A stretch of DNA of 64,000 nucleotides. Origin: Scenedesmus sp. PABB004. Lineage: Eukaryota. Under the pieces are notes generated by a model. That model saw only the letters and a list, made by a program, of their open reading frames with translations, made no database searches and was not told where the DNA came from. How positions within the stretch are numbered: the stretch's first letter is position 1; every line of letters begins with the position of its first letter. Of the stretch, positions 9,635-44,738 are shown piece after piece. The stretch is from positions 372,001 to 436,000 of the forward strand of contig JABVCE010000011.1 in the NCBI GenBank assembly GCA_014905635.1, written 5' to 3'. Made by a program: the position numbers and the translations under genes.

Positions 9635-11989
9635 TCAGGCGCCAGGGCCCCACACCAGCCAGCCGTAGTACCGCCCGGCGGCGCCGGCCGCGGCGGCGCG
9701 CACGTACGGCTGCGCGCCGGCGGCCCTGGCGCTGCGGCGGCGCTGCGCCGCTGCGCGCATTGGCTCGAGGTTTTTGTAGCCGATTGGGCTCGCGCAGCCG
9801 CCGCCCATGAGGCAGTTGGCCGCAGCGCCCGCCACGTGCGGCGCGGCCTGCGGCGGCGGCGGGCGGGGCGGCGCGCGTGAGCGCCGGCGGCCCACGGGGG
9901 CGGCGGCGGCGGCTGCCCCGCGCCGCGCCGGGGCACGGGGCTCCGGCTCCGCCCGGGCAGGACCGCCGCGCCGCGCCGCGCCGCGCCGCGCCGCACCATG
10001 CTGGTGCCGCTCTTGACCGCGTAGCCGCTCGGGTCGACCACGAACGAGACGGTCGAGTTGATGTCCGAACCGGGCGCGGCCACGACGCGGCGGCGCTCCT
10101 CCGGCGCCGCGTCGGCGGGCAGCCAGTTGCTGAAGCCGGCGGGGCCGTCCCCCGCGCCGTCGAGCGCGGTGACCGCCGCGACGCCGGGGCAGGCGGCCGG
10201 CAAGTAGTCGGCCAGCGCCTCGCCTGCGTTGCCGGCCGCGACGACGCTCAGCACGCCCGCCGCGCTCGCCTCGGCAAAGACGGGGCAGATGCTCGCGAGC
10301 GTGAGGGCGTAGCCGGGCGAGCTCGCGGGCAGGTGCGCGGCGAGGCTGAGGTTGATCACGCGCAGCCCGTTGGCGCGGCCGTTGACCGCGGCCCACTTGA
10401 CCGCCGAGAGCATGCCGCTGAGGAGGCCAAAGCCGGAGTCGTCCATGATGCGCAGACTGAAGAGCGGCACGCCGGGCGACACGCCGACGAGCCCCGCGCC
10501 GTTGTTGCGCGCGCCGACGATGCCCGCGAGGTGCGTACCGTGCCCTGTGGGGTTCAGACCCGCGGCGGCGGACGCGGCGGTCAGCGCGGGGCGGGGCGCG
10601 GCCGCGGGCGCCGGCGGCGCGCGCGGGCCGCGCGGTGGGGCGCTCACCGAAGCCGTCGCGCCCGGCGTCGGTGTCGTTTTTCACAAAGCTGACGCCGCCT
10701 GGGGGGGGGGGGGCAGGGCCGGCCGGCCCGGCGGGCGGCGTCAGGCGGCGTGCGTGCGAGCGGCGAGGGCGGGGCGGCGCCGCGGCGGGGCAGCAGCGGC
10801 GGCGGCGCCCACCCGCGTAGTTGAGGTCGGGGTGGCTCGCGTCGATGCCTGGCGGCGGCGGCGGCGCGGCAAGGGCGTCGGCGGCGGCGCAGCAAGCAAG
10901 GGCGGTGGCGGCGGCGCACCAGGGGAGCTCCCCCCCCCCCACAGACACACACACACACCGCACCGGAGTCTATGATGCCGACCACCACCTGCCTGCCGGG
11001 CGGCACGCCGGCGGAGCTCACCACGCCGGCCGCGGTGGCCGCCTCGATGCGCGCCACGCCGGTCGGGACCTGCTCGCCGGCCGCGAGCGGCACGCGCGGC
11101 AGCCCGCCGGCGCTCGGCTCCGCGCCCGCGGCGACCGCGCGCGGCGCGGCCGCGTCGCCGGCGGGTCTGGCGTCCTGCCAGCCGGCCGGCAGGAGCGGCA
11201 GGTCGGGGATGACTGCGGCCACGAGCGGCGAGCGGCGCAGGCGCTGCACCGCGTCGGGGGTCGCCGACACGACCGCGCCCTGCACGCCGCCGCCGGCGGC
11301 GCCCCCGGGGGACGCCGCCGCCGCCACGCCGCGCGGGGCCGTCGGCTCGCCCGCGGGCTGCCCCAGGCTGCCCAGCAGCTCCACGTCGGCCTGGCCGCCG
11401 GCGGCGGCCGCGCCGCGGGCCCCGCCGCCCAGGAGCGCCTCCGCGGCGGCGGCGTCGGCGCCCGGCGCGAACATGACGATGTAGCGGCCGCCCGCCGCGG
11501 CGGCGAGCTCTGCGGGGCACAGGCGGCGACGGACAGCAGGCGTCACCGAAGCGCGGCGTGAGCGCCCGGCGACGGCGCCGCGGCGGCGCGGCAAGCACGC
11601 GTGCCGGCCCCCCTGCGCGCGGCGGAGATCCCGAGGCCGGGCGCTCACCGTCTGGCACGGCCTGCAGGCCTCGCGGCTGCACGACATCGGCGCCTGCGGT
11701 GCGCACGCAGCGGCAGCCTCAGCGCGGCTGCGCACTCCGCTCCGCTCATGTGTACCAGCACCACCGCCAGCTCGCCGGGCGTGCCCCCCGGGGCACGGCG
11801 GGCGGCGGTGCCGCGCGGGCGGGCGATGAGGCCGGGCTCACGGCGGCGTGGGGCACGCGCGGCCTCACCTGCCAGTTCCGGCGCAACGAGGGGCCTCCCA
11901 CTAGTCCCGGACACGGCGAGCAGCAGCAGCAGGCCGGCCCGAGTGGCGGCCAGCGCCGCACTCCGCGCGCCCCGGCATGCTGCGGTCAT
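9635..11989 (-). CDS. Secreted subtilisin-like serine protease (peptidase S8) with I9-like prodomain
   Basis: Signal peptide (GLLLLLAVSGTSG) and prodomain RYIVMF. Catalytic motifs VVVGIIDSG/IDASHPDL, HGTHLAG, oxyanion AAGN and SGTSM|AAPHVAG. Multi-exon. Confidence 0.92.
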
Positions 11990-13272: not shown

Positions 13273-15981
13273 ATGCCGCACCAGACCTGCCTGGCCGCGC
13301 TCCTGACGCTGCTGCTGGCCGTGCACACCGCCATCGCCCGCCAGGAGCCCGACGCTCGCTCCGCAGCGCCGTCAGGTGCGCTTGTGGCGGGACGCGCGGC
13401 AGGTTACGCGAGCAGGCCACGATCGGAGGGCGCCGCGCGGCGCGCCAGTGATCGTCACGAGCTCGCTGGCTGACGGTTCCGCGCGGCCTCCGCCCGCCAG
13501 GGCTCGCCGACCTGCCGCTGGGCGCGCCCATCGAGGGCCGCTATGTCGTGATGTTCAAGCGCGAGGCGGGGGCCGCCCCCGCCGCCACCACTCGGTGAGG
13601 ACGCGCGCAGCGCGGGGGCCGCGCCGGCGCCGCGGCGGCGGCGCCGCGCGGGCGGGCGTCACCGGCCGGGCGCTGCTCACCTCTGCCGCGCCGCGTCGTC
13701 CCCCGACCCCGCGCCGCAGGCTGGCGCAGCACGTCGCCGCCGCCGCAGCAGCAGCGCCCACGCTGCGCGGCGTCGCCGCCGCGGCGTCCAGCAGCGCGGC
13801 GGGCGCGCCCGGCTTTGTCGTGGTCGGCAGCCTGCAGCGCGACCAGGAGGACGGCGCCGCCCGCAGCGCCGCCGCAGCCGGCGCAGCGGCGCCGCGTGGC
13901 GCGCAGGGCATCGTGGTGAGCGCCAGCAAGCAGGTCGCGGCGGTCATGCAGACCTCCAGCGACGTCGCGGCGGTGTTTGCGGACCGCGTCATCGGCGTGC
14001 AGGGTGCGCGGCGGGCGCGGCGGGCCCGGCGGCGGCTGACCCAGCGCTGCAGCCCGCGCCGCGCAGGGGCAGGCCCGCGGCAGCTGCGCGCGGCCCTCGC
14101 CCTGACGCCTGCCGCGCCGCCGCCGCCGCCGCCGCCGCCGCTGCCGCGCAGCCCGCGCCGCGCCGGCCGCCTGCGTCGAGCCGCAGACGCTCGAGCAGGG
14201 CGTGTCGCTCGCGGCCGCGTCGGCCCCGCGCTTCAAGTGGCCGGGCTGCATCGTGCCCGGCGCGCGGCTGGTCTACAAGGGCGCGCGCTGCGACGCCAGC
14301 TCAGACCTGGTGCAGTACAGCGAGGTCGCCGCGGTCAACGCCGCCGGCAGCGTGCTGCGCTCCGCCTCGGCGGGCGCGCCCTGCGTGCTGCGCAGCAGCA
14401 CGCGCGCGACGTGGACGCGCCAGCGCTTTGGCGGCTGCGGCGCGGCGCCGCTGTTCGTGGCGTCGCTGCCCACGCGCGTGTGCCCCACGCGCTCCGGCGG
14501 CGGCTTTGTGAGCGGCAGCCCGCCCCCGAGCCCCAGCCCCAGCCCCAGCCCGAGCCCCTCGCCCAGCCCGGCGCCGGAGCTGCCGACGCCCGGCGTGTCG
14601 CCCTCGCCCCCGCCCCCGGCGGCGACGGCGCAGCTGCCGCGCGTGCCGCTCGCGGCCGACGAGTTTGTGCCCACCGGCGTCGCGCGCATCGAGGCGGCCA
14701 GCGCCGCGACCGGCGCGGTCAGCCTCGCGGGCCTCCCGACCGAGCAGCAGCTCGTGGTGGGCATCATCGACTCCGGTGCGCCCCGCGCGCGCTCCAGCAG
14801 CGCGCCGGCGTGCGCGCGCGCGCGCGCCGAGGGCCGCCGCAGGGCGCTCACCCGCTCTGCCGCCGCCGCGACAGGCGTCGACTCGACGCACCCCGACCTC
14901 AACTTCGCGCCTGAGGCCAGCCGCAGCTTTGTCACCGGCGACACCGAGCCGGGGGTTGATGCATACGGTGAGCGCCCGACGCGCTCCCCGCGCCGCCTGC
15001 GCCGCGCCGGGCGCCCCGCACCCCGCGCGCCGCGCCGCCGCACGAGCTGACCGCCGCCGCCGCCGCCGCCGCCGCGGGCGCCAGGGCACGGCACGCACGT
15101 CGCGGGCATCGTCGGCGCGTCGAACAACGGCGCGGGCGTCGTCGGCGTCTCGCCCGGCGTGCGCCTCGCGTCGCTCAAGGTCCTCGACGCCGCGGGGCGC
15201 GGCACGCTCTCGAGCATGCTCGCCGCCGTGACGTGGGCGACGAGCGCGGAGGGCGCGGCCGCCGGCATTCGCGTGATCAATCTCAGCCTCGCTGCGTACG
15301 TGGCGCCCGACAGCGCCGACGCCGCCGCCGTCACGGGCGCTGTGTGCGCGACCTTCCAGGCGGCCAGCGACGCGGGTGCGGCGCGGCGCGCGAACGCGGC
15401 GGCGCGTCGCACGGCGCCGCGGCGCGTCGTGCCGGCACCGCGCGCGCGGCGCCTGACGCCCGACGCGCCCGCCCCGCCGCCGCTTCCCCCTTGCCCCCCG
15501 CCGCGCAGGCATCGTCGTCGTCGTCGCCGCCGGCAACTACGGCGCCGACCTGACCTCCGGATACCTGCCGGCGGGCTGCCCCTCGGTGATCGCGGTGACC
15601 GCGGTGGACGAGGCCGGGGCGTCGCCGGCGATGTTCTCCAACTGGCTGCCCGACTCGGCCGGCCCCGACGCCAAGGCGCGCGTGCTCGCGGCGCCCGGGA
15701 CGAGCATCCGCAGCACCGTGTCGTTCGCGCGCGACCCGAGCGGCTACAAGACGCTCTCGGGGACGAGCCAGGCGAGCCCGCACGTCGCGGCCGTCGCGGC
15801 CAACTGCCTCATGGCCGGCGCGTGCGCGCGCGGCGCGCCGGGCGCGTCCGCCGCGGGCGTGCTGCAGGCCGCCGCCGCGGCGCGCCTCGCGCGCGCGGGG
15901 CCCGCGTACGGCTTTGCCGGCGACGCGGCCAGCACCGCCAACGCCAAATTCTTCGGCCTCCTAGCGCACGCCGCGTTCTGA
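13273..15981 (+). CDS. Secreted subtilisin-like serine protease (peptidase S8), paralog of 9635-11989, with an extra Cys-containing domain and (SP)n linker
   Basis: Signal peptide MPHQTCLAALLTLLLAVHTAIA and prodomain RYVVMF. Catalytic motifs VVGIIDSG/VDSTHPDL, HGTHVAG, AAGN and SGTSQASPHVA. Stop at 15981. Confidence 0.92.
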
Positions 15982-19232: not shown

Positions 19233-20893
19233 TGCGCGCCACGCCACGACCGGGCGGCCAGGCAGACGCACTGCGAGCGGCGGTGCTGCGACGCCCCAGC
19301 GGGCTGCGGCGGCCGCCGCTGGTGCTGCTGCTTGCGCACTGCAGGCGGCGCGTGGTGCTCGCCAGTGCTGCCTGCCTAGCAGGGAAGCAAGGAAGGGCCG
19401 CTACTATATTACCGCGGCGAGAGGGCCCGCGCCGCGCCAAGCATCGACGGATCGCCGGCGAGCAACGTGTGTCGTGACGACATGACAGCTCAAGTGGGCA
19501 AGGTCGACAAGCACCCCACCGGTGTTTTGGACGAGGGTGAGGGAGGAGTTCAGCTGGGAGCCTCAGTCCCACAGCCCACCGGCCGGAGCGCCAGCACGCG
19601 CAGGCAGTGCACCACCATCATGCCTTCCAAGCTCTGACGCGCCGCCGCCGCCGCGCACAGCGGCGCCCGCGAGCGGGAGCGACACGCAAGCGCCGGCGCG
19701 CGCGGCCAAGAGCAAAGCCCTGGGCTTTTTTCTTTGTGTTCTTCAACCAGTTGCTGACGCGGTTGACGTCATCCGTGCAGCACCGACAGACGCGGCATCA
19801 ACTGCATGGCAGACCGCGCAAGCGACGGCGCCTGAAAAGCAAAGCCTGTCCTGCCGCCAAGCCCTCGCCCGTGTGACCGCATCCCGTGCGCCGGACTGGT
19901 TGAAAGCGGCGGGGACCACGGTTCTGGGTGGCCCCCGCCGCAAACCGCGCCCGACACACAGCTGGAAGCCCCGGGGGCTCGCGCACAGCGGCGCCGCCAA
20001 GTGTGTGCAGCACCAATGCCGACAGCGTGTGTGCGCAGCGTGCACGTGGTTTTCCCGCCGACTGCGTTGGTTGGTGTGTGGTGGTGGTATGGGTGTATGT
20101 GTGCGGGCGCGCCTCCCACGACCCGCAAGGTGATATCCTTTGATACTGTGGACAGTGCGTGTTCGTGGTGGTGACGCAAAAGCAAAAGCAACGGCCCCCT
20201 CTGTCTCGCCGCCGCAGCAAAGGCACGGGCAGAGGCTGACGGCGCGCAGGCGGGCCACCGTGGTGGTGGCCCACGTTCTGGGGGCGGCTGCCGGCGCCGC
20301 AGTCAAAGCACGCCGGGCCCGAGCAAAGCCCACATCCGCACACAAACCAGCGTTGACCAACCAGGGTTCCAGACATGGCGCCAGCGGCATGCGGCGCAGC
20401 AGCAGACGCCGCGGCGGCGCGCCACGCCATAGCCACCAAGTGGTGAGCAGCCTCCCGTGCGTGGCCGCCGCTGTTCATGCAATGCTGTGCCTGCGCCGCC
20501 GCCCCGCGTGCGCCGCGCTGCGTGCGCGGCAGCGGCAGGAGCAGGGGCGGCAGGCTCCGTGCGCAGCTGCGACCACTCTGCCGCGCATGCACTCAGGCGC
20601 GATCCACGCGCGCGCCGCTCGCGCGCATGACTCAGGCGCGGCATGCAACCCAAGCGTCCTGGGCAGCAGCAGCAAGACGTGCTGCAGCAGCGAGTGCAGT
20701 GCCGCCACACAAATGACCGAGAGCGCAGCAGGCGCGCGCCCGCCGCCCGCGCGGCCGACGCGGCGCGCCGAACGCGGGAGGGGGTTTCCACCAGCAGTTT
20801 TGTTGGCGCCGCGTTGGCACCACCCCGCAGGGCAAAAGAAAAAAGAATGCCGGGGGCGCCGCTGAGGGCGCGTCTGTGGAGCGCGGCGGGCGC

Positions 20894-21475
20894 TCACCAG
20901 CCGCCCCGCTCGTGCGGCTGCTGCGACGGCGGCATGCCCGGCAGGGCTCCGCTGTGGCCGCCGAGCACGCCGCGAGGCGCCAGACCGGGCTCGCCCGGGC
21001 CAAGCAGGCCGCCGTGCAGCGCTGCGTGCGCGCCCGGGCTCACGAGGCCGCCCACGTCCAGCTGCTGCGCGCCCGGTGGCAACCCGCCGCTGCCGCCGCC
21101 GGCGCCGCCGCCAGGCAGCACGAGGTGCCCTGGCGGCGCGCCGGCGCCGGGCGCGTACGCCGCCGGCGGCCGGAAGCCGCCCGCCGCGCCGTAGCTGGCG
21201 TACGCGTGGCCCCAGCCCTGCTCCATGGGGCTCGGAATGTAGACCAGCGGCGGCTGCGGCGCGCCCGGCGGCGCGCCGTACGGGGCCGCCTGCGGGCCGC
21301 TGCTGGGCGGCAGGACCATGACCACCTGCTGCTGCCCCCGCCGCCCGCCGCGTGCGGCGGCGGCAGCGCGTCGCCAGGCCACGCCTCCACGCCGCCGGGC
21401 TCGCTCGCGCGCGGCGCCATGGGCGCGGGCGTGACCACGAGCTGCGAGAACTGCTGCACCACGCCCGCCAGCGGC

Positions 21476-21516
<41 letters not shown>

Positions 21517-22658
21517 CGGCACGACGACGACCGCGCCGCTGGGCAGCTGTGCGTCCGGCGAGTAGAAGCGCCCCGGCAGCTGCCCCGGGTGCGCGTACTG
21601 CTGCTGCACGCCGGGCGGCGGCGCGCCCACGTACGACAGCGGCGGGTAGCCGGGCCCGGGCCCGGCGCCGCCGCTGGGCGTGAGGGCCACGCCCTGCTGC
21701 AGCAGCAGCTGCGGCGCCGGCGCCTGCTGCACATAGCGCACCCCGCCGGGGGGCAGCACGCCCCCCAGCGGCACGCACGCCGACTGCAGCAGGCCGGCGC
21801 CGCCGCCGGCCGGCGCGCGGCCGCCGCCGCCGCCGCCGCTGCTGCTGGCGCGCTTGCCGAGCCCGGCGGCGGCCTCGTCCGGCGCGGCGGGCTTGAGGCC
21901 CGCCGGCAGCGGGCGCAGCTCCACGTCATTGTGCGCAAAGAAGCACACCGGGCGGCTGCAGCGGACGCCCTTCTCGCACATGCTCGTCCGGTAGCGGTTG
22001 GGGTGCAGCCAGAACTCAAACGCGCTGTGGCTGCACTGGCAGTCCTCGAGCCGCGGGCACACCTTTTTCTGCGCGCGCGGGCGCGGGCGCGGGCGGCGAC
22101 GGCGGCTGAGCGGCGAAGCGCGGCCGCCGGCGCGCCGCGCCCGCGCGCGACCCGGCGCGCGCGTGCGCACGCCGCCGCCCGCTCACCGCGCGGACCTCCG
22201 GGCAGAGCAGCGCCTGGTAGCGGCTCGGGTGGCGCCGCCGCGCGACGTCGCCCGGGTGCGCGTAGGGGCAGCTCCCGCGCGGGTGCTTGTCGGCGCGGCT
22301 GCACAGCTCCACCTGCGCGGCGCGCGGCGCGCGCGCGCGCGCGCGCGCAGGCGCGGGCGCGTCGGCGGGCGCGGCCGCCCCGCCGCGGCGCGGGCGCTGC
22401 AGGCTGCCGCCGCGCGTTCCTGCGAGCGCGGCGCGCGCCCAGGGCCGCTGCTGCGCTGCGCACCTTGTACGTGAACATCATAAACTCATCAGGGTAGCCG
22501 TAGTTGCGCGCCCCCGGCACCGGCGCCACCGTGCCGGCCTGCTCGCGCTGCTCCGCCGCGGCGCCGGCCGGCTGCTCGCCCGGCGGCGCCTGCTGCTCCG
22601 CGCCGGGCCCGGCCGCCTCGCCGGGCCCGCCCGCGCCTGGCGCGTCCAGCTCCTCCAT
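20894..22658 (-). CDS. Tandem CCCH zinc-finger protein (plant TZF-like), with one apparent 1-nt frameshift near 21335
   Basis: DEFMMFTYK|VELCSRADKHPRGSCPYAHPGDVARRRHP, CPEVRA|KKVCPRLEDCQCSHSAFEFWLHPNRYRTSMCEKGVRCSRPVCFFAH. The C-terminus is Gly/Pro/Gln-rich. Confidence 0.9.
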
Positions 22659-23498: not shown

Positions 23499-26249
23499 TC
23501 AAACAACTTCCGGCGCGGACTCAAGCCAGCAGGCTGCGCCAGCAGAGGCTTCGGCCTCGGCCGCGGCGCGCGCGGAGCGCCAGACGCGCGACGCGAGCGC
23601 GTCTGGGTCGCCGCCGCCGTAGCACGCGCGCAGCGCCGCCTCCGCGCTGCCGCCGCCGCCGCGCGCGCAGCACGAGCGCAGCCCGCAGGCGTCGGTGGCA
23701 AACGCGAGCACGACGAGCACGCAGTGCGCGCCGCAGGTCTCCGTGCCCGGGCGCTGCAGCGGCGCGCAGGGCAGGCCCACCACCTGGTACGAGGAGCAGG
23801 CACGCGGCGCGCCGCCGCGCCATGCGGGCGGCAGCCACACGCGTGCACGCTCGCGCAGCGCTCGCGCGCGGCCCCCGCTCGCGGCGCTGCCGAGGGAGTC
23901 GAAGGTAAGCAGCAGCCGGGCGGAGTGGTGGGCGACGGTCAGCGTGAAGTGCTCGCCGTTGCGGACAAGAACGAGCTCAGACACGCCAGTGATAGGGCGG
24001 GCCACCGGGGCAGGCGCCGGCGACGCGAGCGCCGCGGCGGGCGCGGAGGGCGTGGCGGGCGCGGCGGCGCCCGGGCGCCGCCACGCCGTCGCCCCGGCGG
24101 CCGCGGCCGCAGCGGCCGCCGCTGCCGGCAGCAGCGCCGGCAGCAGCGCCGCGCCCGCCGGCAGCGCGACCACGGCAGCAGTGACTCCGAGCGTCGCCAC
24201 CGAAGCCGCCGCCGCCGCAGCGGCCGCGGCCGCCGCCGCGGCAGCGCCGTCAACGTCGGGGCGGGGCTCGGCGACGGCCGACGGCGCCGCGGCCGGCCCT
24301 GGCGCGGGCGCGGGGTCGCTCGCCGCGCGGCGCCGCGCCGGGCCTCGCTCGTGCGGCGCCGTGCCGGCGCCGGCCTCACCGGCCCAGCGCACGCCGGCCG
24401 CGTGTGTGGCGTAGAAGGGAAGATGGCCGGCGGCCGCGGGGAGCCACGCGCCGCTGCGCACGTCCCAGGTGCTCACGTGGAGGAGGTGCCCGTCACGCGT
24501 GACGTGGCCGTCGAGGTGCGCCAGCGCGTCAGCGATATTCGTGAGGTCGAGTCGCACCACGTACGGCGTACGTCGCGCCGCGCCAGCAGCAGAGCCAGCC
24601 GGAGCCGGCGGGGCCCCGCCGCCCCGGGGCGGCGGAGGCTCCGCGCGCGGTGGCGGCTCCCGCTCCGCGCGCGGCGGCGCCTCCCACAGCCACCGCCTGC
24701 CAGCGTCGCGGCTGGTGCCGCCGCCGCCGCCGGCGGCGGCGGCGGCGGCGGCGGCGCTGCCCTGCTGGCCCTGCGCCCAGCGCGCCTGACGCGCCTCGCG
24801 CGCGGCGCTGGGGCTCCTGTGCGCGCGGCGCCGGAAACACCCCTGGCCGGGCTGCCACTGCCCCTCCGCCGCCTCAAGGTGCTCGGCGCCCCCGTCGCCG
24901 CGCCCGGGCGCTGCAGCTGCGGCCCGCTCGTCCGCGGGCGGCGGCGGCGCGGCGCCGCCGAGCAGCTCCAGCGCGCTGCGCAGCATCGCGTCTGCCGCTC
25001 CGCCACCGTCGCCGCCGCCGCCGTCGCCGCCGCCGCCACCACCGCCGTCAATGCGACGCTCGCGGCGCGGCGGCGCGACGCGCCGGCCCGGCCACAGCCT
25101 CACGCCGACCAGCCCCAGCACCGCCTCGCCCTCCAGCAGCAGGTGCGCGAGGGCGCCCAGGGACAGGTCCGGGTCCAGCTGGTGCGCCAGGAGGGTCTCA
25201 TAGAAGCGCAGCGGCGCGGCGCGCGCCGCGGTGTGGGCGAGCAGCAGCGCGAGCACGTGCGCGCAGCTCGCGCCAGGCTGGCGCTGCCGCAGCGCGCCGG
25301 CGCCCGCGTAGCGCAACGGCAGCCCTGGCCGGCGGCGGGCGGCGGCGACGGCGCGTCCGCGTTGGCGCGGCGACGCGCAGGGGCGCGAGCGCGCGTCAGC
25401 CCTGGCCACTGGTGGCAGCCGCCGGCGCGAGCATTCACCTGCCGCCGCCAGCTCGGGCCGCAGGCTAGCAAACGCGCCCGACGGGTCCCAGAGCTCCCAC
25501 GCCGCCTGCGCCGCGCCCGCGCCCGCCCGCGGCTCGCCCACGAGCAGCGCGAGCTCGCGCGTGTGGCTGCCGTGCGCGACAGCATAGACCGTGCCTGCAG
25601 GCGTGCACGCCGCCGCCGCCGCCGCCAGCCCGCTCGCGGCGCAGCGCCCCGGCGAGCAGTCCAGGGGCACGGCGGCGCTGCCAGGCGCGGCCGCGAGCAG
25701 CGCGCGCACGCGCGGGGCGCCCAGCAGCTCGGCCGCGGTCAGGCCGATGACGTACGTGCTTCCCACGTGCGGCGCCGCCAGCGGGCTCATCAGCGCCCGC
25801 AGCGTCGCCTCGTCCGGCTGCGGCCGCGGCGGCGGCGCCGCCGCCCAGGCCCAGGCGTCGCCGGCCGCGCGCGCCGGGCCGGGGGCAGGCCGCGCCGCCG
25901 CGCAGGCGTCGCTGCCGGGCGCGCCGCCGCCGGGCGCGCCGCCGCCGGGCGCGTGCGCCAGGTCCAGCTCCAGCTCCAGCAGCGCGCCGCGCACGCCAAG
26001 CAGCAGGTTGAGCAGGTTGGCAGCGGGGTGCAGCACGGGGGCCATCAGCGCGGCCTGCAGCTGCAGCGCCGCGCCGGCAGCACGCGGGCGCGCGCCGCGC
26101 GACGCCGCCGGCGCCGCTGCGAGCCGCTGATGCCGGCGTCCGCGCGCCAGCGAGCCATGGTGGGGCTCACGGAGCAGGCGCGCGGCTGCTGGGCGCGGCG
26201 GCGGCGGCGGCGGCAGCGCGCGGCCCGCTGCTGGCGCGAGCGCATGCAT
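23499..26249 (-). CDS. Putative CE-clan (Ulp1/SENP8-like) cysteine protease with one clear and one probable protease domain; start codon uncertain (26249 or 26045)
   Basis: Long open frame. C-terminal domain (~23680-24000): NGEHFTLTVAHHSARLLLTFDSLG...APLQRPGTETCGAHCVL, giving the H-D-Q-C order. N-terminal domain (~25240-25600): HGSH..LALLV..WELWDPSG..RQRQPGASCAH once an in-frame 114-nt GT-AG intron (25325-25438) is removed. Confidence 0.65.
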   Translation of the reverse strand: MHALAPAAGRALPPPPPPRPAAARLLREPHHGSLARGRRHQRLAAAPAASRGARPRAAGAALQLQAALMAPVLHPAANLLNLLLGVRGALLELELDLAHAPGGGAPGGGAPGSDACAAARPAPGPARAAGDAWAWAAAPPPRPQPDEATLRALMSPLAAPHVGSTYVIGLTAAELLGAPRVRALLAAAPGSAAVPLDCSPGRCAASGLAAAAAACTPAGTVYAVAHGSHTRELALLVGEPRAGAGAAQAAWELWDPSGAFASLRPELAAAGECSRRRLPPVARADARSRPCASPRQRGRAVAAARRRPGLPLRYAGAGALRQRQPGASCAHVLALLLAHTAARAAPLRFYETLLAHQLDPDLSLGALAHLLLEGEAVLGLVGVRLWPGRRVAPPRRERRIDGGGGGGGDGGGGDGGGAADAMLRSALELLGGAAPPPPADERAAAAAPGRGDGGAEHLEAAEGQWQPGQGCFRRRAHRSPSAAREARQARWAQGQQGSAAAAAAAAGGGGGTSRDAGRRWLWEAPPRAEREPPPRAEPPPPRGGGAPPAPAGSAAGAARRTPYVVRLDLTNIADALAHLDGHVTRDGHLLHVSTWDVRSGAWLPAAAGHLPFYATHAAGVRWAGEAGAGTAPHERGPARRRAASDPAPAPGPAAAPSAVAEPRPDVDGAAAAAAAAAAAAAASVATLGVTAAVVALPAGAALLPALLPAAAAAAAAAAGATAWRRPGAAAPATPSAPAAALASPAPAPVARPITGVSELVLVRNGEHFTLTVAHHSARLLLTFDSLGSAASGGRARALRERARVWLPPAWRGGAPRACSSYQVVGLPCAPLQRPGTETCGAHCVLVVLAFATDACGLRSCCARGGGGSAEAALRACYGGGDPDALASRVWRSARAAAEAEASAGAACWLESAPEVV

Positions 26250-26386
26250 GCGGGCGGCCGCGGCGCCGGTGCCAGCGCCGGCGGCCGTCGGTACACTCCG
26301 CTGGTCGCGCTGGCGTCGCGGGTCGATCGGCGGGCGCTCGTGCGGGCGACGTGAGCCGTCACGCGGCGCCGCCGCGCTGCGCAGGC

Positions 26387-26421
26387 GAGCTTTGCGGGGG
26401 CGGCGCGCCCCCGCAAAGCTC
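26387..26421. promoter_or_regulatory. Perfect 16-bp inverted repeat in the divergent promoter region between the protease and UBL genes
   Basis: GAGCTTTGCGGGGGCG-gcg-CGCCCCCGCAAAGCTC: the two arms are exact reverse complements. A regulatory role is inferred only from position. Confidence 0.6.
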
Positions 26422-26448
26422 CCCGGCACAAAGTTCGCATCGAGCAGG

Positions 26449-26988
26449 ATGCAGGCGGCGCGCAGGGCGCTGCGGCAGCGCGAAGCGGTGGCGGCGGCGC
26501 CGCGCCTCCTCGGGCGCTGCCTGCCGCGCGCCGGCCTGCCGCGCGGCCTGCTGCCGGTCGTCCGGCCCGCCCGGCTGGCCCTGACCGCCCTGCCGAGCGG
26601 CGCCGACAGGGCCGACGCGGCGCCGCGCGGCGCCCGGCGCGCCGCCGCGCAGCGTGCGCCGCCGGCAGCTGTCGCGGGCTGCGGCAGCGCCAGCCTCGAG
26701 CCGCCGGCCGACGGCCCGGCCGACCACCTGCTGAAGCTCAGGGTGGTGCTGCTGGCCAGCGCCGCCGCCAGTTTCGAGGTGTGCCTGCCTGCGTCCGGCG
26801 CGACCCTGGGCGCGCTGCGGCGCGAGCTCGACGCGCGCCTCGGCGGCTGGGCGGCGGCGGGCCCGGCGCGGATCGCGTACGCTGGCAGGGAGCTGGCGCG
26901 CGGCGCTGACGCCGACGGCGCGCCGTTTGTGCCCGTGCGAGGCGTCCGCGTCCTGCACGTGCTGCCGCACCGCCTCGTCGGCGGCTGA
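26449..26988 (+). CDS. Ubiquitin-like protein with exposed C-terminal diglycine and N-terminal extension (179 aa if unspliced)
   Basis: LKLRVVLL..SFEVCL..ATLGALRRELDARLG..ARIAYAGREL..RVLHVLPHRLVGG* aligns by eye with ubiquitin (DTIENVKAKIQDKEG, RLIFAGKQL, TLHLVLRLRGG). Confidence 0.78.
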   Translation: MQAARRALRQREAVAAAPRLLGRCLPRAGLPRGLLPVVRPARLALTALPSGADRADAAPRGARRAAAQRAPPAAVAGCGSASLEPPADGPADHLLKLRVVLLASAAASFEVCLPASGATLGALRRELDARLGGWAAAGPARIAYAGRELARGADADGAPFVPVRGVRVLHVLPHRLVGG

Positions 26989-27100
26989 CCAGCGAGCGGC
27001 TCTCGAGAGAGCTCACGAGCTCACGAGCGCACGAGCCACGCACGAGTCGGGGGTGCAAGCGGTTGCAGAGCGGCGCGCGTCGCCTCCCCGCGCCCGGTCG

Positions 27101-28984
27101 TCAGCTGCCGCCGCCGGCGCCAGCCTCGGGCGGCTCCCAGAGCTGCAGCCGGCAGTCCGAGCCGCCGCTGACGAGCCCGCCGGCCCCGCGCCAGCCGACC
27201 GCGAGCAGCTTGGCGCCCTCGCCGTGCTGCGCGAGGCTGGCCAGCGGCACGGGCGTGCGGATGTCCCACAGGCGCACCACGCCGTCGTGCCCCGCGCTCG
27301 CGAGCTGGTGGCCGCTGCCGGGCCGCCACGCGAGCGCCGCGACCCAGCCGCCCTGCCCCCCGAGCGCGCGCACCGCGAGCGCCTCGCCCGGCGGCGCGCG
27401 CGCGTCCCACACCCGCACCGCCGCGTCGGCGCCGCCGAGCGCGACGAGCCCCCGCCGCCTGGCGGCGCGGCGAGGGCGTAGACCGCCTTGCTGCCGTTGT
27501 AGGTCTCCGTGTTGGCGCACGCCTCGGCGTCGTAGCGCCGGACCGAGTGGTCCCAGCCGCCGCTGAAGACCGTGCCGGCCGCCGGCCACGCGACCGCGGC
27601 AACGCAGTGGACGTGCCCCGGCAGTGCGCCGCGCGGCGCGAGCGCGGGCGGCGCGGGCGGCGCCGCCGCCGCGTCGCGCGTCCTGCGCTTCTTGCGGCCG
27701 GCCGCCGCCGCCGTGTCCTCGCTGCCCTCGCCGCCGCCGGCGGCCTCATCTTCCAGCGCCTGCTGGCCTGCGCGGCGGCGGCGGCGGCGGCGGGGGGGGG
27801 GGGGTTGCGCCGCGTGCCGCGCGCCCGCCAGGCGCGCGGCGCGCCGAGCCGCGCGGCGGCCGCGCCCCCGCGCGCGGCGCCGCCGCACCCGTCCGCCACA
27901 GCAGCAGCTGCCCGTCCCAGCCGCCGCTCGCGCAGTGGTCTCCGGCCGGGCTCGCGGAGACCGCTTGCACCGCCTCGCGGTGCCCCTGGCAGACCAGCGC
28001 GCAGCGCGCCCCGCCGCCGTCGCGCTGCAGCTGCCACAGGCGCACCGCGTGGTCCTTGCCCGCCGACAGCAGCAGCGGCGCCGCGCCCGCCGCCTGTTGC
28101 TCCTGCTGCGCCGGCAGCGCCGCGAGCGCATTGACGCCCAGCCGGTGCGCGGTGAACTCCAGCTCGCACTCGCCGCCGCCCCACACCCGCACCACTCCGT
28201 CCGCGGCGCCGCTCACGAGCGCGCCGCCCGGCTGCAGCGACGCGACCGCCGTGATCCTGCGGGCCGCGGCGGCGCGCGTCACGCGTCGCGCGCCGGCCGG
28301 CGCCGACGGCGCAGCGCGCAGGCCGCCGCCGCGGGCGGCGCAGCCGCGGGGCCGCACCAGTCGTCGTGCGGGATGGCCGACCGGGGCTCGGGCGGCACCA
28401 CCGCCGGCACGTACTCCACCTCCACCACCGCCTCCTGCGAGCGCGTGGCGCGGCGCGGCGCGACGGGGCGGCGGCAGCCGCGGGTCGGCGCCCAGCCCCG
28501 CGCTCCGCCGCGGCGCGGCGTGAGCGCGCCGCCGCCGGGCGCCGCACGGCACGCACGGGCGAGATGCTGTGCTCCAGCAGGTGCCGCTCCAGGCTGCGGC
28601 GCAGCAGCTCGCCGTTGATGATGAAATCGAACGGCCGCGGCGGGTCTGCGGCGCGGCGGCGCGGCGCGGCGCGTCGGCGCGGCGCGTCGGTGCGGCAGCG
28701 ACCGCCGCCCCCGCCCGCGCGCCGGCGCGCGCGCCGCACCCAGCGCCAGGAGGTGGTTGATGATCTGGGAGAGCCCATAGCGCTTCAGCGACGCCGGCAC
28801 GGCCTGCGGGCGCGCGGGCGGTCGGCGGCGGGCCGCGGCCGCCGGCGGCCGCTGCTGCCGGCGCCGCAGCCGCCCGCGCCGCGGCGGGCGCGCGCACCAC
28901 TTCGGTGGGCGGCACTTGCAGCTCCGGCGGCAGGCGCGTGGTGAAGCGCACCAGCACCTGCGTGGCCTCGGCCGCGCCCGCCAT
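27101..28984 (-). CDS. WDR12: Ribosome biogenesis protein WDR12/YTM1 (NLE domain plus WD40 repeats), with an apparent 1-nt frameshift near 27450
   Basis: QVLVRFTT, VPASLKRYGLSQIINHLL, FDFIINGELLRRSL, EAVVEVEYV..PHDDW, followed by WD repeats (GHREAV, SGGWDG, GHVHCV, SGGWDHSVR, LASAGHDGVVRLWDIR, SGGSDCRL). Confidence 0.92.
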
Positions 28985-33142: not shown

Positions 33143-36100
33143 GCTGCACGCCGGCATGTGCGGCAACAGCGTGCGCTGCTCCCAGAAGCCCAGCCGCACC
33201 TGTGGCGGCGGCGCGGCGACAGCGGCGGAGCGCAGGGTCAGCATGGGAGGGCTTGCGGCGCCGCGGCGCGGCGCCCGCCGCCCGCCTGCCCGCCCGCCCG
33301 CCGCCCGCCCGCCCGCCCGCCTGCCCGCCCGGCCGCGCACGCTCGCCGCCGCACCTGGACCATGAAGCGCTGCCACAGGGCCGCCACGGCGCGCGCATTG
33401 CCGAAGACCAGCGCGTGGCACGCGAGACGGCACAGCAGGCTGCCTGGCGGCGCCGCGCGCGGCAGGCACAGCGCGGCGGCCGCCCGGTGCTCCCGTCCCC
33501 GTCGCCCTCGCCCGCCACGCTCGCCCGGCTGCCGCCTGCGCCGCCGCGGCCGCCTGCGCCGCCGTCGGCGCCGCCGCTGCCGGCCTGCTGCTGGCGCGGC
33601 GGGCTCAGCAGGTCGCGCAGCACCGCGTCCAGCACCCCGTCGGGCGGCAGCAGCGGCGCCAGCACCTCGCCGCGCTGCTCCCACCACTCGGCGCCTGCGC
33701 GGCGGCGGCGGCGGCGGCGCGCGGCCGTGGGCGAGGCGAGCGAGCGCGCGCCCGGCCGCGCGCCCGCCCGCCGCCGCACCTGCCAGCTCCCAGAGGCTGC
33801 CCGCCGCCGTCGCCGCGGTGCGAGCGGTCATGAGGGCACTGAGCATGACGGTGAAAGACCCCGGGTCGAGCCGCGGCCCCGCCACGCCGCGGCCCGCCCA
33901 CGTGCCGGGGCATAGCCCCAGGGCTGCGGGCACACGCCCGACAGCCGCCCGCCCTCCGCGAGCGCCGCGGCCGCGAGCTCCGCGCTCCACAGCCAGTCGG
34001 CGCCTGCGCGGCGCGCGGTGGGGGTGAGGCAAGCGCGGCGCGGCGCGGCGCGGCGCATGCGGCGGCCGCGGCCCGCGCGCACACCCGCGGCGGTGACCGA
34101 GACGTGGCGGCGGTGCCGCTCGCTGCTGCGCATGCCCAGGCGCCCGTGGCGCAGCGGCGGGCTTGAGAAACCATGGTCAACCGCGTGCAGCAGCCAGTGG
34201 TCGGCGCTCGCCGCGTCGGCGAGCGCGCGCGACAGCGCCGCCGGCGTGTCCAGCCCGCCCGGCGGCGGCAGCGGCGGCGGCTCGGCGCGGGGCGCGCCGT
34301 CCCCGGCCGGCGCGGCGGGCGCCGCCGCGGACCCTCTGCTGACCACGAGCTTGCCCGGCCGGGCCTTGCCCGCTGGCGGCGTGCCGGGCCGCTGGCTGCT
34401 GGCGGCCGCAGCCGCCGTCGCGGCCGCCGCCGTGGCCTCGTCGACCAGGCGCCGGTCCTCCCAGACCACGTCCAGCTCCAGCGCCACCACGGGGTCGCGC
34501 TGCTGCGCCCAGGGCTGCCAGGGCGCGTCCGCGTCCCATTCCCGCCCCCGAGCGCGTCGTCGTCGTCGCCCGGCAGCGCCGCCGGCCCGCCCGTGGCGCT
34601 GCTGCCGCGGCTGCCCGCGCCGCCGCTCGCGCTGGGCCCGCGCGGCTGCGGCGGCGGCGGCGCCGGCTGCGGCCGCGCGCGCGCCTCTGGCTGCGGGTGC
34701 AGCCAGTGCTGCCGGCTGGCGTCTGGGAGGCGGAACGTGAAGCAGGCGGACGCCCACACGGCGTAGCCGCCGCCGCTGCCGCAGCCCAGGCCCAGCTGCT
34801 GCTGCTCGCCGGGCGGGCTCGGGGCGCCGCCCTCGCCCGCCGCCGCGCCGTCGCCGCCGGGCGCCGCCACCGGCGCGTGCCCGAGCGCCACGAGGCACGC
34901 CGCCGCCGCGGCGGGCGCGTGCGGGGCGAGCTGGTCTGCAAACACCGTCAGCTGCTGCTCCAGGCCCGTGAGGTGGCGAGGCAGGCGGCTGATGTGGATC
35001 GAATCGGCCGTGAACACGACGCTGCGCCCGCCCACCTGCGCGGCAGCGGACGGCGACGGGCGTGCGCGCGCGGCCAGGGCGGGGGCGGGCGGGTGGCGGG
35101 GGGCGAGCAGGCCGGCCGAGGCGCGGGCGCCGCGCGTGACGTGGCGGGTGCGGCCCCTGGGGCGCCGCACCTGCGCCACGCCGGCGTACGCGTCGCGCAG
35201 CGCGTCGTGCACCGGCAGCAGCAGCGGCCACGCGACGCCGCTGCCGGCGAGCGCGAGGCGGCCGACCGAGAGCAGGCTGCTCGCCTCGGCGGCGTCGAGC
35301 AGGCGCCGGCTGTAGCTCGCGGGCTGCAGCAGGACGAACAGGTCCAACGCGAACCAGCGCTGCAGCTTGTGCACGCCCGACACCGGCGCCCACCAGGGCA
35401 GCTTGAGGCTCGGCAGCGCCTGGAACGGCGCGCCCTCGGCGCCGCCGCCGGCGCACGCGGCCGCGTCGTCGAAGCAGTGCGGCCACCAGCCGCGGCTCGC
35501 GGCGCCGCGGCTCTGGTCGAGGCGCACCGCCGCGGTCGCCGCCGCCAGCGCCTGGCTGTCGAGCACCGCGAGCGCCTCTGGCGGCGGCAGCTCCACGAGG
35601 CGCGAGCTCGCCTCGCCGCCCTCCTCGCCGCCGGCGTCGCTGCCGCCGCCCTCGTCGCCGGCCGCGAGCGTCGCCGCGGCCGGCGCGCCGCCGTCGCTCG
35701 CGGCGCCGCCGCTGGCGGCCCCCGCGCCCCGCCGCGCGCCGCGCGCCCTGGCGCCGGCGCGCGGCTCGCCGCCGCCGCGGCCGGCGAGGCCGAGGCCGGA
35801 CAGCGCGTCCACCGCCGCGCCGACCGCCGCCGCGGTGAGCGACTTGCCGCCGGACGAGCTCGAGCGCCGCCGGCCGAGCAGCACGGCCTCGCCGCCGCCG
35901 CCGGCCTCGCCGCCCGCGCCGGCGTCCCTGCCGCCGGGGTCTGGGCTGCCGCGCTCGAGCGCGGGCGCCACGTCACTCACGTCGATCTCGTGGCTCGTCA
36001 GCCGCCGCGGCCGCCGCACGTGGGGCGCCGCGCCGTCCGGCTCAGTCGCGCTGCCCTCCTGCTGCAGCTGCGCGTGCAGCTGGGTATACTCGGCGATCAG

Positions 36101-36953
36101 CTCCTGCACGTGCTGCTCCAGCTGCGCGCCGCCGCCGCCGCCGGCGTCGCCCTCGCCGGCGTCGCCCGCGCCCGCGGCGCCGGCCGCCCCCGCGGCGGGC
36201 GCTGCCTGCCGGGCGGCCGCCTGCGCCGTCGCGGCCAGCTGTTGCTGCTGCTGCTGCTGCTGTTGCCGCCGCCGCCGCTGCCGCTGCTGCGCCTGCTGCG
36301 CGTGCTGCGCGTGCTGCGCGTGCTGCGCGTGCTGCGCGTGCTGCGTGCGCTGCATCTGCTGCTGTGCTTGTTGTGTCTGCTGCTGCGGCTGCTGCTGCTG
36401 CTCTTGCCGCGGCTGCTGCTGCGCTTGCTGCGCCTGCTGCTGCTGCTGCGCCTGCTGCGCCTGCTGCGCCTGCAGCTGACGCTGCCGCGCCGCGGCCAGC
36501 TCCGCCTCGCGCGTGTAGGGGACATGGAGCGTCAGCGTGTACGGCTGCTCGCGCCAGGGCAGCCTGCGGCGTACGCGCGGCGTGGCGGTTGGCGTGGCGG
36601 CCGCGCGCCAGCAGCCGCCCAGCACGCGCCGCCGCCGCCGCCGCCGCCGCGGGCGGACCGGTGCCGCAGGGAGTTTGCCACGCGCACGAGGCCGATCGGC
36701 TGCTTGTCGGCGCCCACCGCCGGCGGCATGTGGCTGATGTTCTCCAGGCCGGTGAGCAGCCAGCCGCGGAAGCACTGCTCCAGCTGCGCGACCAGCCTGC
36801 GGCGGCGCGCGCGGCGGGCGCGGCGGTTGGGCGCCGCTGCCCGCGACCGCCGCTGCCACCGCCGCAGCAAGCGGCGCAGCCGCGGGCGCAGCGCGTCGGT
36901 CACCGCTCGACGTTGGTGGCGAGCGTGTAGTCATGGAAGCCCTCGTCCGACAT
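30507..36953 (-). CDS. RAB3GAP1: Rab3 GTPase-activating protein catalytic subunit, multi-exon, with poly-Q tracts and apparent frameshifts near 33495 and 34545
   Basis: N-terminus MSDEGFHDYTLATNVER. Further motifs HKLQRWF, AVAALWQRF..VRLGFWE, PDLDACLLQQKLQMLNLCI, LLGDMAAFKAANPGCVLDDFLRWYSPRD and LSARM..GNSWQQLW..QRQLLNPAKEGEQVLHYLE. Confidence 0.92.
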
Positions 36954-43071: not shown

Positions 43072-44738
43072 CTAGCCCTGCGGCGGCGCCGGCGGCGCCG
43101 GCGGCTGCCCCGGCTGCGGCACGCCGCCGCCGCCGCCGCCGGCCTCGGCGCCCGCCGCGGCGCCGACGCGGCGCGTGTTGTAGCCGCCGCAGCCGCTGCA
43201 CTTGTGCCCGACCACGTGGAACGCGGCCTCGCCGCGGTGGCCGCAGTCGTTGCACAGCACGCTCACCTGCGGCGCCCGGCGGCAGGGGCCGCGCGGCGCG
43301 GCGGCGTGGGCGGCACGCGGGCGCACACCGCCCCCCACCCCGCCGCGCAGCTGCCCCGGGACCGCCCCGGCCCGCCGCGCTGCCCCGCTGCCGCCGCGCC
43401 ACACACCCGGACGTGGCGGTACTCCTCCGGCATGGGCGTGTCGGCGACCTGCTGGTCCAGGTAGCGCCACATGCGCGCCTGGCCGCACGACGCGGCGCGG
43501 CGGCGGCGGCGGCGGAGGGCCGCGAGGGGTGCGTCTGAGCGCCGCGGCCGATCGCCACGGGCTCCCAGTGACAACCCCCCCCCCCCCCCCCCCCTCCCTT
43601 CGCCGCGCCGCGCGCCGCGCCTGGTCGTCGGGGCCGAGGATGCACTTGAGGCAGAGGGGGCAGGTGATCGTGTTGTGCGCCATCAGGTCGCGGTGGCACT
43701 CCTGCGGGTGCAGCGCCCGCCGCGGACGGGCGGCGGGTCAGGAGGCTGCGGCGCGCTGCCGCCGGCGGCGGCGGTGGCGGCAGCGGCGGCACGGCCGCGG
43801 CGGCGCGCGGCGCGCGGCGCTGCCACCAGGCGCCGCGCCTGGTGGATGGTGTGCCCGCACGCGAGCACCGCGATGGGTCGGATCGAGTCGAAGAGGAACT
43901 CGACGCACACGGGGCAGTTCTGGTGCATGCTGTTGCTCACGCACACGTGGCTGCCGCGCAGCGAGACCGAGTAGCAGCAGTTGCAAGTCGCGCAGTGGAA
44001 AAAGTTGGCGCGCCCGCCGACGCGGCAGATGCCGCATTCGTCGCAGTGGAACTGCTGCTTCGCGACGGTGTCGTCCCAGAAGTTGCACCTGACGCGTGCG
44101 GCGCGGCGTGCGCGGAGCGCCGGCGGGCGCGGCGGCGCGCGGTGGTGAGCGGGGGCGCGGGCGGCGCGAGGGGCGCAGCGGGACAGGGGGGCAGGGAGCG
44201 CGGGGTCACTCACTTGAGGCAGGCGTAGCGCCCAAACGCAGCGCCGCACGCGGCGCAGCCCGCGGCGACCGGCTGGCGCACGCCGCAGAGCGCGCAGACG
44301 ACCTCGGCCACGAGCTTGCGGTCGAGCGTGTGGCGCTTGGCCGGGTCCTGCGGTGGGGTCGCGCGCGTGATGCTGGCTGTGCCAGCGCGGCGAGGCCGCC
44401 AGCAGCGCGGCGCCGCGCCACCTGCTCGCTGTCGTCCTTTGCCACGTTGTGGCAGTGCCGGCACCAGAACACCTCGCCGCAGCACGGCGCGACGAGCTTG
44501 CAGCGCCGCCTGCGCGGCGTGCGTGCGCGCGCGCGGGCGGCGGCCGCATTCGGGCCGCGGCGCTGCGGCGGGATCGCGCCTGCCTGACCCCCGCGCCGCA
44601 CCGGTAGTGCTCGCAGCCGTGCTGCATCACGCCAGCCGCGGCGGCGCCGCTCGCCGCCGCCGCCGCTGCTGCGGTCGTGTCGTGCTCGTGCTCGTCGCCG
44701 CTGGAGGCGCTGACGTAGTGCTCCTCGTCGGCCGCCAT
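43072..44738 (-). CDS. CHY zinc-finger/CTCHY/RING E3 ubiquitin ligase (PIRH2/RCHY1, MIEL1-like)
   Basis: [77 protein letters not shown] and [23 protein letters not shown]. Confidence 0.95.

Follow-up and report, generated by a model that had tools for sequence, protein, structure and literature searches.

A divergent CE-clan protease gene head to head with a plausible orphan ubiquitin-like gene in Scenedesmus sp. PABB004, and their candidate partnership

A stretch of 64,000 nucleotides (nt) of Scenedesmus sp. PABB004 (GCA_014905635.1, contig JABVCE010000011.1, positions 372,001 to 436,000 of the forward strand; the whole stretch is called the window below) was used for this analysis, and its subject is a pair of divergently oriented genes at 23499-26988. 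On the minus strand lies a long gene for what is very probably a cysteine peptidase of clan CE, and on the plus strand an orphan open reading frame (ORF) whose product ends in Gly-Gly (GG) and may contain a ubiquitin-like (UBL) domain. A first-pass annotation made from the letters alone had proposed that the two are a modifier and its own deconjugase. What emerges is a well-founded family of divergent CE-clan proteases, an orphan UBL that is plausible, and a candidate partnership of the two. The features are collected in Table 1.

Table 1. Coordinates of the gene pair and its parts (positions in the window)
Feature	Position	Strand	Basis or remark
Protease gene	23499..26249	-	ORF open from 26429; starts at ATG 26249 or ATG 26045
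Protease gene stop codon	23499-23501	-	ORF list
Block B, CE-clan cysteine peptidase catalytic core	23502..24011	-	homologues, invariant H/D/Q/C, predicted fold, ESM
Codons of the putative catalytic residues in block B	His827 23949-23951; Asp844 23898-23900; Gln892 23754-23756; Cys899 23733-23735	-
Ala/Pro-rich low-complexity insert between blocks A and B	24012..24380	-	alignment A1, model, codons
Block A, YVxxLDLTxxADxLAHxDG...W...LPFYxTHAAGV	24381..24563	-	tblastn to P0007/P0003, alignment A1
Divergent intergenic/5' region	26250..26448	.	holds the 25-nt inverted repeat
Inverted repeat, 25 nt	26378-26402 / 26406-26430	.	88% complementary, 3-nt spacer
Orphan ORF, 179 amino acids (aa)	26449..26988	+	87-aa Arg-rich, acid-poor N-terminus, then C-terminal beta-grasp-like domain
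Candidate ubiquitin-like domain, 92 aa, ending HRLVGG	26710..26985	+	model, Foldseek, VIA-align, ESM

The minus-strand ORF (23499-26429, 976 aa) contains GEHFTLTVAHHSARLLLTFDSLG...PLQRPGTETCGAHC near its C-terminal end, where it reads ...GVSELVLVRNGEHFTLTVAHHSARLLLTFDSLGS...PLQRPGTETCGAHCVLVVLAFA..., so that the divergent ORF with HFTL...FDSLG...LQ...TCGAHC described in the first-pass annotation is indeed present. Counted on the translation, the putative catalytic residues are H827, D844, Q892 and C899, with 17 residues from H to D, 48 from D to Q and 7 from Q to C. On the plus strand, ORF 26449-26988 ends ...VLHVLPHRLVGG-stop; its C-terminal sequence is ...ARIAYAGRELARGADADGAPFVPVRGVRVLHVLPHRLVGG-stop and it terminates ...RIAYAGRELARGADADGAPFVPVRGVRVLHVLPHRLVGG-TGA. 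The reported GG before the stop was found at codons 26980-26985, with the tail ...PHRLVGG directly before the TGA at 26986-26988. Scanning the six frames of the window gave 1067 stop-to-stop ORFs, among which the strict H/D/Q/C motif occurs once and a loose H..D..Q..C spacing pattern 15 times, and a GG end was found in 2 of the 396 ORFs of at least 100 aa. It follows from the single strict occurrence and the two GG ends that the protease motif is distinctive and the GG end alone is not.

The G+C content is 72-84% across the window and about 80% overall. Since stop codons are rare at this composition, ORF length is no evidence of coding (median 64 aa, 95th percentile 392 aa, longest 1310 aa). 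Both proposed frames are coding-like. The position-specific GC periodicity (GC3>GC1>GC2) is seen in exactly the two proposed frames, that of the UBL ORF and that of the protease ORF. A codon model was also trained on other parts of the window, namely 21 open segments of strong periodicity (6255 nt). By this model the UBL frame beats all five alternatives by +0.19 to +0.72 nats per codon, and the part coding for the 92-residue domain does so by +0.26 to +0.95, as compared to +0.12 to +0.63 for block B of the protease, which is verified by homology. The codon support for the UBL frame is thus at least as strong as that for the homology-confirmed protease block. The long antisense ORF at 26359-26970 behaves as the complement of a coding frame, and the top coding segment on the plus strand (26416-26985) terminates right at the UBL stop codon.

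The protease gene appears to be a single uninterrupted reading frame, with one frame holding GC2 lowest over 23550-26250 and the coding signal continuous in one frame from ~23590 to ~26075. The codon log-likelihood is positive at 24380-26045 and 23502-24011, and weak upstream of 26049. Upstream of about 26045-26075 this signal is gradually lost, and of the two candidate starts ATG 26045 is therefore no worse than ATG 26249. The insert between blocks A and B has a predicted local distance difference test (pLDDT) value below 50 in the structural model. Its codon log-likelihood is negative, so that it may be an in-frame intron; that the insert is coding low complexity is argued by the less GC-rich relatives, which keep long open inserts at the same site. 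By eye, a second H...WDPSG...RQRQPGASCAH pattern resembling the H-D-Q-C block can be seen at ~25200-25600 on the minus strand (ORF residues ~280-400). Compared with block B by BLASTP, this region reached no better than E 2.2, which is not significant, and it has no match in the PDB; it may be either a degenerate duplicate domain or chance.

An exhaustive phmmer search of the last 213 residues of the protease against 1.84 billion representatives returned five proteins at E <=0.001. Four of these are genuine relatives (P0001-P0004, E 6.5e-8 to 2.6e-6), sharing the core GVSEIILHRSGxHFTLSIxNHQH..LL.FDSLG ... Q..G..TCGPH...ALxYxAD..G.RSSC ... ALQxCY. The fifth match (P0005/P0009), a bacterial RTX-repeat protein, was rejected as spurious. 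An additional relative, P0007 (979 aa), was obtained from a word-indexed search with E 1.1e-23. All of the relatives come from short JGI/IMG contigs, where they are listed as 'hypothetical proteins'. None of the 6 aligned sequences departs from H, D, Q and C, nor from FTL, FDSLG, TCG.H, RS.C and CY, and we conclude that the family is conserved and that its putative catalytic residues do not vary. Conservation also extends to block A (YVxxLDLTxxADxLAHxDG....DGHL...W...G.LPFYxTHAAGV), which by tblastn is 54-58% identical to P0007 and P0003. In the alignment of the window protein with P0003 and P0007 this block lies upstream of a long insert rich in Ala, Ser or Gln. The insert spans 120-330 aa, being longer in P0003 and P0007 than in the window protein. 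The N-terminal ~600 residues of the ORF show no similarity to the relatives. No fused UBL was found in the relatives, no relative of the protease among 2.9 million viral contigs, and no second copy of the gene within the window; scans of metagenome contigs with the family profile (A2) and with P0007 confirmed no locus. Among the sequencing runs listed for this DNA there was no RNA run and one DNA run (X1), which contains a small share of it. Compared with the locus, run X1 yielded two short contigs nearly identical to parts of the protease gene (24409-24574 and 25063-25245) and otherwise low-complexity matches only, with no usable match for the UBL ORF.

The claim of the first-pass annotation that the H-D-Q-C order marks a protease of the Ulp1/CE type gains support from several sides. 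When the family profile is compared with PDB sequences, ChlaDUB1/Cdu1 alone is left once low-complexity noise is set aside (E 0.65-0.78), with HF aligned on HW, FDSLG on FDSL, QR on QR and TCG on SCG. An AlphaFold2 model was built on the six-sequence alignment. In alignment numbering, one of its strands begins with His214, the strand after it ends with Asp231, and Cys286 is found where a helix starts. With some reservation, as the scores are modest, the predicted fold is a CE-like alpha/beta arrangement in which neighbouring strands carry His and Asp and a helix has Cys at its N-terminus. The proposed Foldseek check of such a model, for which CE-clan structures were expected, gave CE-clan proteases for all the matches listed (ranks 1-50), including SENP1, SENP2, SENP5, SENP7, Ulp1 and DEN1 as well as ChlaDUB1, ChlaDUB2, SseL, SdeA-DUB, SnCE1 and poxvirus I7L; the best match was SENP1 with E 0.011 and probability 0.96-0.98. 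VIA-align, which is independent of Foldseek and was run on 48,161 chains, returned 18 CE-clan chains by title among its top 20 rows (Z 5.0-6.1), and its top row was Lpg1148 (Z 7.1), also a Ulp-like deubiquitinase. The alignments to CE-clan chains cover residues 9 to ~340 of the model. By ESM features, 27 of the 30 nearest clusters belong to the Peptidase_C48 set (score 0.94, 179 shared features).

Several results weigh against this assignment. The window protein has no match to PF02902 (Peptidase_C48) or to any other Pfam family, even at E up to 10, and of the six family members only one matches PF02902, at E 0.11, below the cut-off. The ChlaDUB1 profile match (E about 0.7) is not significant. 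The AlphaFold model is of low confidence overall (pLDDT 47.7, predicted template modelling score 0.39), with the two conserved blocks at 63-74. The Foldseek E values of 0.011 or worse are modest, and a Z of 7.1 or less is a level that VIA-align itself calls common. Yet these individually modest lines agree and the catalytic residues are invariant, and for these reasons the minus-strand gene very probably encodes a CE-clan peptidase. It may be noted that, as the PF02902 threshold is missed, we file the protein as a divergent C48-like family in clan CE and not as Pfam C48.

Compared to Ulp1/SENP/DEN1 (MEROPS C48, clan CE), the window protease has the same H-D-Q-C order, an aromatic residue after His and Cys at the helix N-end. 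The His514-Asp531 spacing of Ulp1 is 17 residues, which is also the H to D distance in the window protease. The predicted fold matches those of SENP1, SENP2, SENP5, SENP7, Ulp1 and DEN1, and ESM places the protein with Peptidase_C48. It differs from these enzymes in falling below PF02902, in having Phe (Phe828) where Trp usually follows His, in a domain that appears to be split by the 120-330 aa Ala-rich insert, and in a family seen only in the clusters of 5 relatives among the 1.84 billion representatives. Ulp1 has ~80 ordered residues ahead of the catalytic His, whereas block B has only ~20. This difference suggests that the missing N-terminal subdomain comes from block A, the domain being split by the insert; block A is therefore probably part of the CE-clan fold. 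Bacterial CE-clan effectors (ChlaDUB1/Cdu1, SseL, RickCE, OtDUB) are also present in the structural lists, and ChlaDUB1/Cdu1 gives the only solved structures touched by the family profile (HW..FDSL..QR..CG against HF..FDSLG..QR..TCG in the family). The window gene is, however, eukaryotic and nuclear, with host codon usage and without secretion or effector context, and the ChlaDUB1 match has an E of only ~0.7.

For the plus-strand ORF the evidence of a UBL comes from a structural model and from ESM features. Single-sequence AlphaFold places strands at residues 6-14 and 21-27, a helix at 33-44 and a last strand at 81-91. Foldseek with this model gave ubiquitin, ubiquitin, Ufm1 and Caldiarchaeum ubiquitin as the first four rows (E 0.85-1.5). 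In VIA-align, most of the 50 matches listed are beta-grasp domains, judging by their titles and known folds: FERM/kindlin F0-F1, the USP11 UBL, FAT10, hPLIC2, HHR23a, UBX, SUMO, ISG15, Hub1, MOCS2A and superantigen C-terminal domains. By ESM features an archaeal PF00240 cluster ranks first (0.93), with Dsc3_N and Rad60-SLD clusters next. The first 40 residues contain 22.5% R+K and 2.5% D+E, as compared to 7.3% and 7.5% in the coding background of the window, so that the N-terminus resembles a presequence for an organelle, or may just be a disordered arm of basic character.

These leads have to be set against a number of results that speak against a UBL. The model is of low confidence (pLDDT 53.9); nothing was found by Foldseek at E <=0.001, the best E being 0.85, and the VIA-align Z is 4.2 or less. 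ESM counted 157 shared features where 170 are typical of true members, and 21 of its 30 matches are without a family. The ORF has no match in Pfam or NCBIfam, and phmmer found no ubiquitin-like chain in the PDB at E up to 10. No homologue was obtained in word-indexed searches, a blank that is itself weak since such searches need shared exact 5-mers. No relative was present among the viral contigs either. Antisense 'shadow' segments elsewhere in the window score 46-71 in the codon model, similar to the UBL ORF. Also, the UBL stop codon lies only 112 bp (26989-27100) from the stop codon (27101-27103) of a convergent WD40 gene, so the ORF could sit in the 3' region of that gene; at the same spacing the 3' untranslated regions (UTRs) of the two genes would be very short or overlapping. 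On balance we consider it slightly more likely than not that a real beta-grasp protein ending in GG is encoded. The reading of the ORF in the first-pass annotation as a divergent ubiquitin-like protein is plausible but weak; the ORF lacks a homologue or a family match. The remark made there that the protein is unlike Ub, NEDD8, SUMO, ATG8 and URM1 by sequence agrees with the Pfam and PDB-sequence searches.

Ubiquitin, NEDD8 and ISG15 have the tail LRLRGG/LALRGG, and the HRLVGG tail of the window protein has R, L, G and G in common with the RLRGG of ubiquitin. FAT10, URM1 and the archaeal SAMPs are ubiquitin-family proteins that are translated with a free Gly-Gly end. Like these, the candidate beta-grasp would have a flexible tail ending at the stop codon, and its structural and feature leads are of the ubiquitin type; unlike these, it is without sequence-level similarity or homologues and has an 87-aa basic N-terminal extension.

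Between the divergent candidate starts there are 199 bp if the protease starts at ATG 26249 and 403 bp if it starts at ATG 26045. The gap of about 200 bp given in the first-pass annotation is thus right for the outer start only, and as the codon signal of the protease fades upstream of ~26045-26075, it may be ~400 bp. Codon statistics favour the inner starts, 26449 for the UBL ORF and possibly 26045 for the protease. The inverted repeat is situated ~20 bp upstream of ATG 26449, and in the window its 12-mer core occurs exactly only at its two arms; it may act as a palindromic element of the promoter or form a hairpin in the 5' UTR. The outermost in-frame ATGs (plus strand 26248, minus strand 26249) overlap in the palindrome ATGCAT at 26246-26251, which is probably a coincidence. 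TGTAA, a green-algal poly(A) signal, occurs at 4 sites against 3.3 expected and is uninformative.

The explanation that we prefer, to which we give slightly less than an even chance, is that both genes are real divergent nuclear genes but mere neighbours, the protease serving the ordinary ubiquitin-like proteins of the organism. The minus-strand product would then be a long protein rich in low complexity, the last ~350 residues of which form a divergent CE-clan (Ulp1/SENP/DEN1-like) cysteine peptidase, in which block A is an N-terminal subdomain bearing a conserved Trp, block B is the catalytic core, and the Ala-rich insert lies between them. From the chemistry of clan CE, Cys899, which begins a helix, would act as nucleophile and His827, oriented by Asp844, as general base, Gln892 would form the oxyanion hole, and the bond cut by the enzyme would be the (iso)peptide bond that follows the terminal Gly-Gly of a ubiquitin-like protein. 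The 179-aa orphan protein would have a probable ubiquitin-like beta-grasp in its C-terminal 90 residues and a ...RLVGG end that is free at translation. With its L-x-G-G tail it is a candidate substrate of the protease. The catalytic activity, the UBL fold and any such substrate relationship are inferences.

It is less likely, though the strongest of the alternatives, that only the protease gene is real and that ORF 26449-26988 is non-coding or spurious, its ubiquitin look and GG end arising by chance. In a window of such high GC, half of the stop-to-stop ORFs exceed 64 aa and 5% exceed 392 aa, and this ORF has neither a homologue nor a family match, its fold model is of low confidence, and its stop codon is 112 bp from the WD40 stop; on this reading it would occupy the protease promoter together with 3' sequence of the WD40 gene. 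By the account of the tool, shuffled proteins reach an ESM first match of 0.9 in 4-10% of cases, and antisense shadow segments have comparable codon scores. However, the margin of this frame over the five others is clearer than that of the verified protease block, the antisense frame falls behind, and the coding-like segment terminates exactly at the stop codon. The ESM 'recognition' value of the ORF is 3067, where, again per tool, 9 of 100 shuffled sequences reach 2300. Also, most of the chains listed by Foldseek and VIA-align, which are independent of each other, are beta-grasp or ubiquitin-like, and the predicted spacing of strands and helix matches that of ubiquitin. We therefore hold the spurious-ORF explanation to be unlikely.

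More doubtful again is the proposal of the first-pass annotation, namely a dedicated and co-regulated module of an orphan modifier and its own CE-clan deconjugase, using conjugation enzymes (E1 and E2) of the host. The two genes would then share a bidirectional promoter, and the modifier would be made in its mature, GG-ended form without any need of processing. The genes are head to head with 199-403 bp between the candidate start codons, a unique 25-nt inverted repeat lies between them, and the ...HRLVGG tail has the Leu-x-Gly-Gly form, which is recognised by Ub/NEDD8/ISG15-directed CE-clan enzymes and by adenain. Both proteins are lineage-restricted and missed by standard family models, and if the UBL is real, the chance adjacency of a CE-clan protease and a GG-ended beta-grasp should be rare (this being an estimate and not a computed value). 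Against this, the protease has some detectable homologues and the UBL none, and there is no fused form among the protease relatives. The first-pass annotation had noted that no conjugation enzymes accompany the pair, and Pfam bears this out, there being no E1 or E2 in the whole window. It may also be noted that the locus was selected after the fact from a large scan, that the presequence-like N-terminus, if real, could separate the UBL from the protease, and that a modifier born with a free GG needs no processing protease. The Caldiarchaeum ubiquitin operon with Rpn11 and the bacterial Bil-type operons encode E1 and E2 together with JAB/MPN proteases. As in these operons, a ubiquitin-like gene adjoins a putative isopeptidase gene here, but the window has two divergent eukaryotic genes, a protease of clan CE, and no conjugation enzymes nearby. 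A dedicated modifier-protease module is therefore improbable in our judgement, and its most specific form, a lineage-specific eukaryotic module with a ready-to-conjugate modifier, a split-domain CE deconjugase, one bidirectional promoter and host E1/E2, is slightly more so.

Far less probable is that the GG-ended beta-grasp is a sulfur carrier of the MoaD/ThiS/URM1 type, or an organelle-targeted beta-grasp, unrelated to the protease. Such carriers are also beta-grasps with a free GG end, the N-terminus is presequence-like, and the MoaD-type 1vjk is found at rank 46 in Foldseek and human MOCS2A (5mpo_B) at rank 37 in VIA-align (Z 3.4); however, there is no PF02597 (ThiS/MoaD) match at E up to 10 in Pfam and none in NCBIfam, ESM places the protein near clusters of ubiquitin, Dsc3_N and Rad60-SLD and not of ThiS, the best structural rows are ubiquitin-type, and no MoaE, ThiG or E1-like gene is present in the window.

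Finally, the suggestion of the first-pass annotation that the pair is of mobile or viral origin, i.e. a recent insertion carrying its own Ulp1-like protease, draws on two uninterrupted genes beside several neighbours (the WD40 gene and a kinase gene) split into many small exons and on nearest ESM clusters that consist of short pieces of C48 proteins of oomycetes and land plants, pieces of a kind often borne by transposons, but it is largely refuted, because GC content and codon usage match the surroundings, the flanks hold only GCC-type low-complexity repeats and no other terminal repeats, the pair is single-copy in the window, no transposase or viral domain occurs among its 78 coding segments, the 2.9 million viral contigs contain no relatives, the protease relatives have the additional conserved block and the same layout in common, as would be expected of cellular orthologues, and the window has long coding segments free of interruption at other places too (e.g. 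1929-4580 and 34538-36562).

Turning to the consequences, it is by Pfam C48 matches that the SUMO, NEDD8 and ubiquitin proteases of algae and plants are catalogued, and the present case indicates that a conserved and apparently catalytically intact CE-clan family can sit beneath the Pfam C48 thresholds. The Chlamydomonas inventory retained pfam02902-positive proteins only (PMC7522501), and a family like the window protease would escape it. Also, a CE catalytic domain can seemingly tolerate a long low-complexity insert between its halves. Within the search terms used, we found no description in the literature of such a UBL/protease pair or family. If the GG-ended beta-grasp is a modifier served by the protease, the locus would represent a rare new eukaryotic ubiquitin-like pathway, with the adjacent genes giving a built-in genetic handle; if it is not, what is left is an ordinary divergent Ulp-like protease adjoining an orphan gene.

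A Pfam scan of the 78 segments selected by the codon model showed an ordinary eukaryotic nuclear neighbourhood, and in these segments E1, E2, transposase and viral domains were all absent. The neighbours comprise two subtilases, an exosome RNase PH, the WD40 protein, a Rab3-GAP catalytic subunit, YIF1, a zinc_ribbon_6 segment, ClpS, FUN14, a GFO/IDH/MocA oxidoreductase, a P-type ATPase and a protein kinase gene broken into many small exons. For the WD40 neighbour, an identification as WDR12/Ytm1-like was considered and dropped as a guess, Pfam having returned WD40-type matches only; likewise the gene at 20475-22658, guessed to be a CCCH zinc-finger protein, has no Pfam match. The two subtilase (Peptidase_S8) genes, at 9955-10629 (minus strand) and 15087-15978 (plus strand), lie on opposite strands ~6 kb apart. 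The zinc_ribbon_6 domain at 43075-43365 (minus strand, E 2.1e-14), a C-terminal module of CHY/RING-type E3 ligases, is 16 kb from the gene pair and without a link to it. The coding-like segments at 1929-4580 and 34538-36562, both on the minus strand, run uninterrupted for 884 and 675 codons without a Pfam family, and could be additional orphan genes of the low-complexity sort that is typical here.

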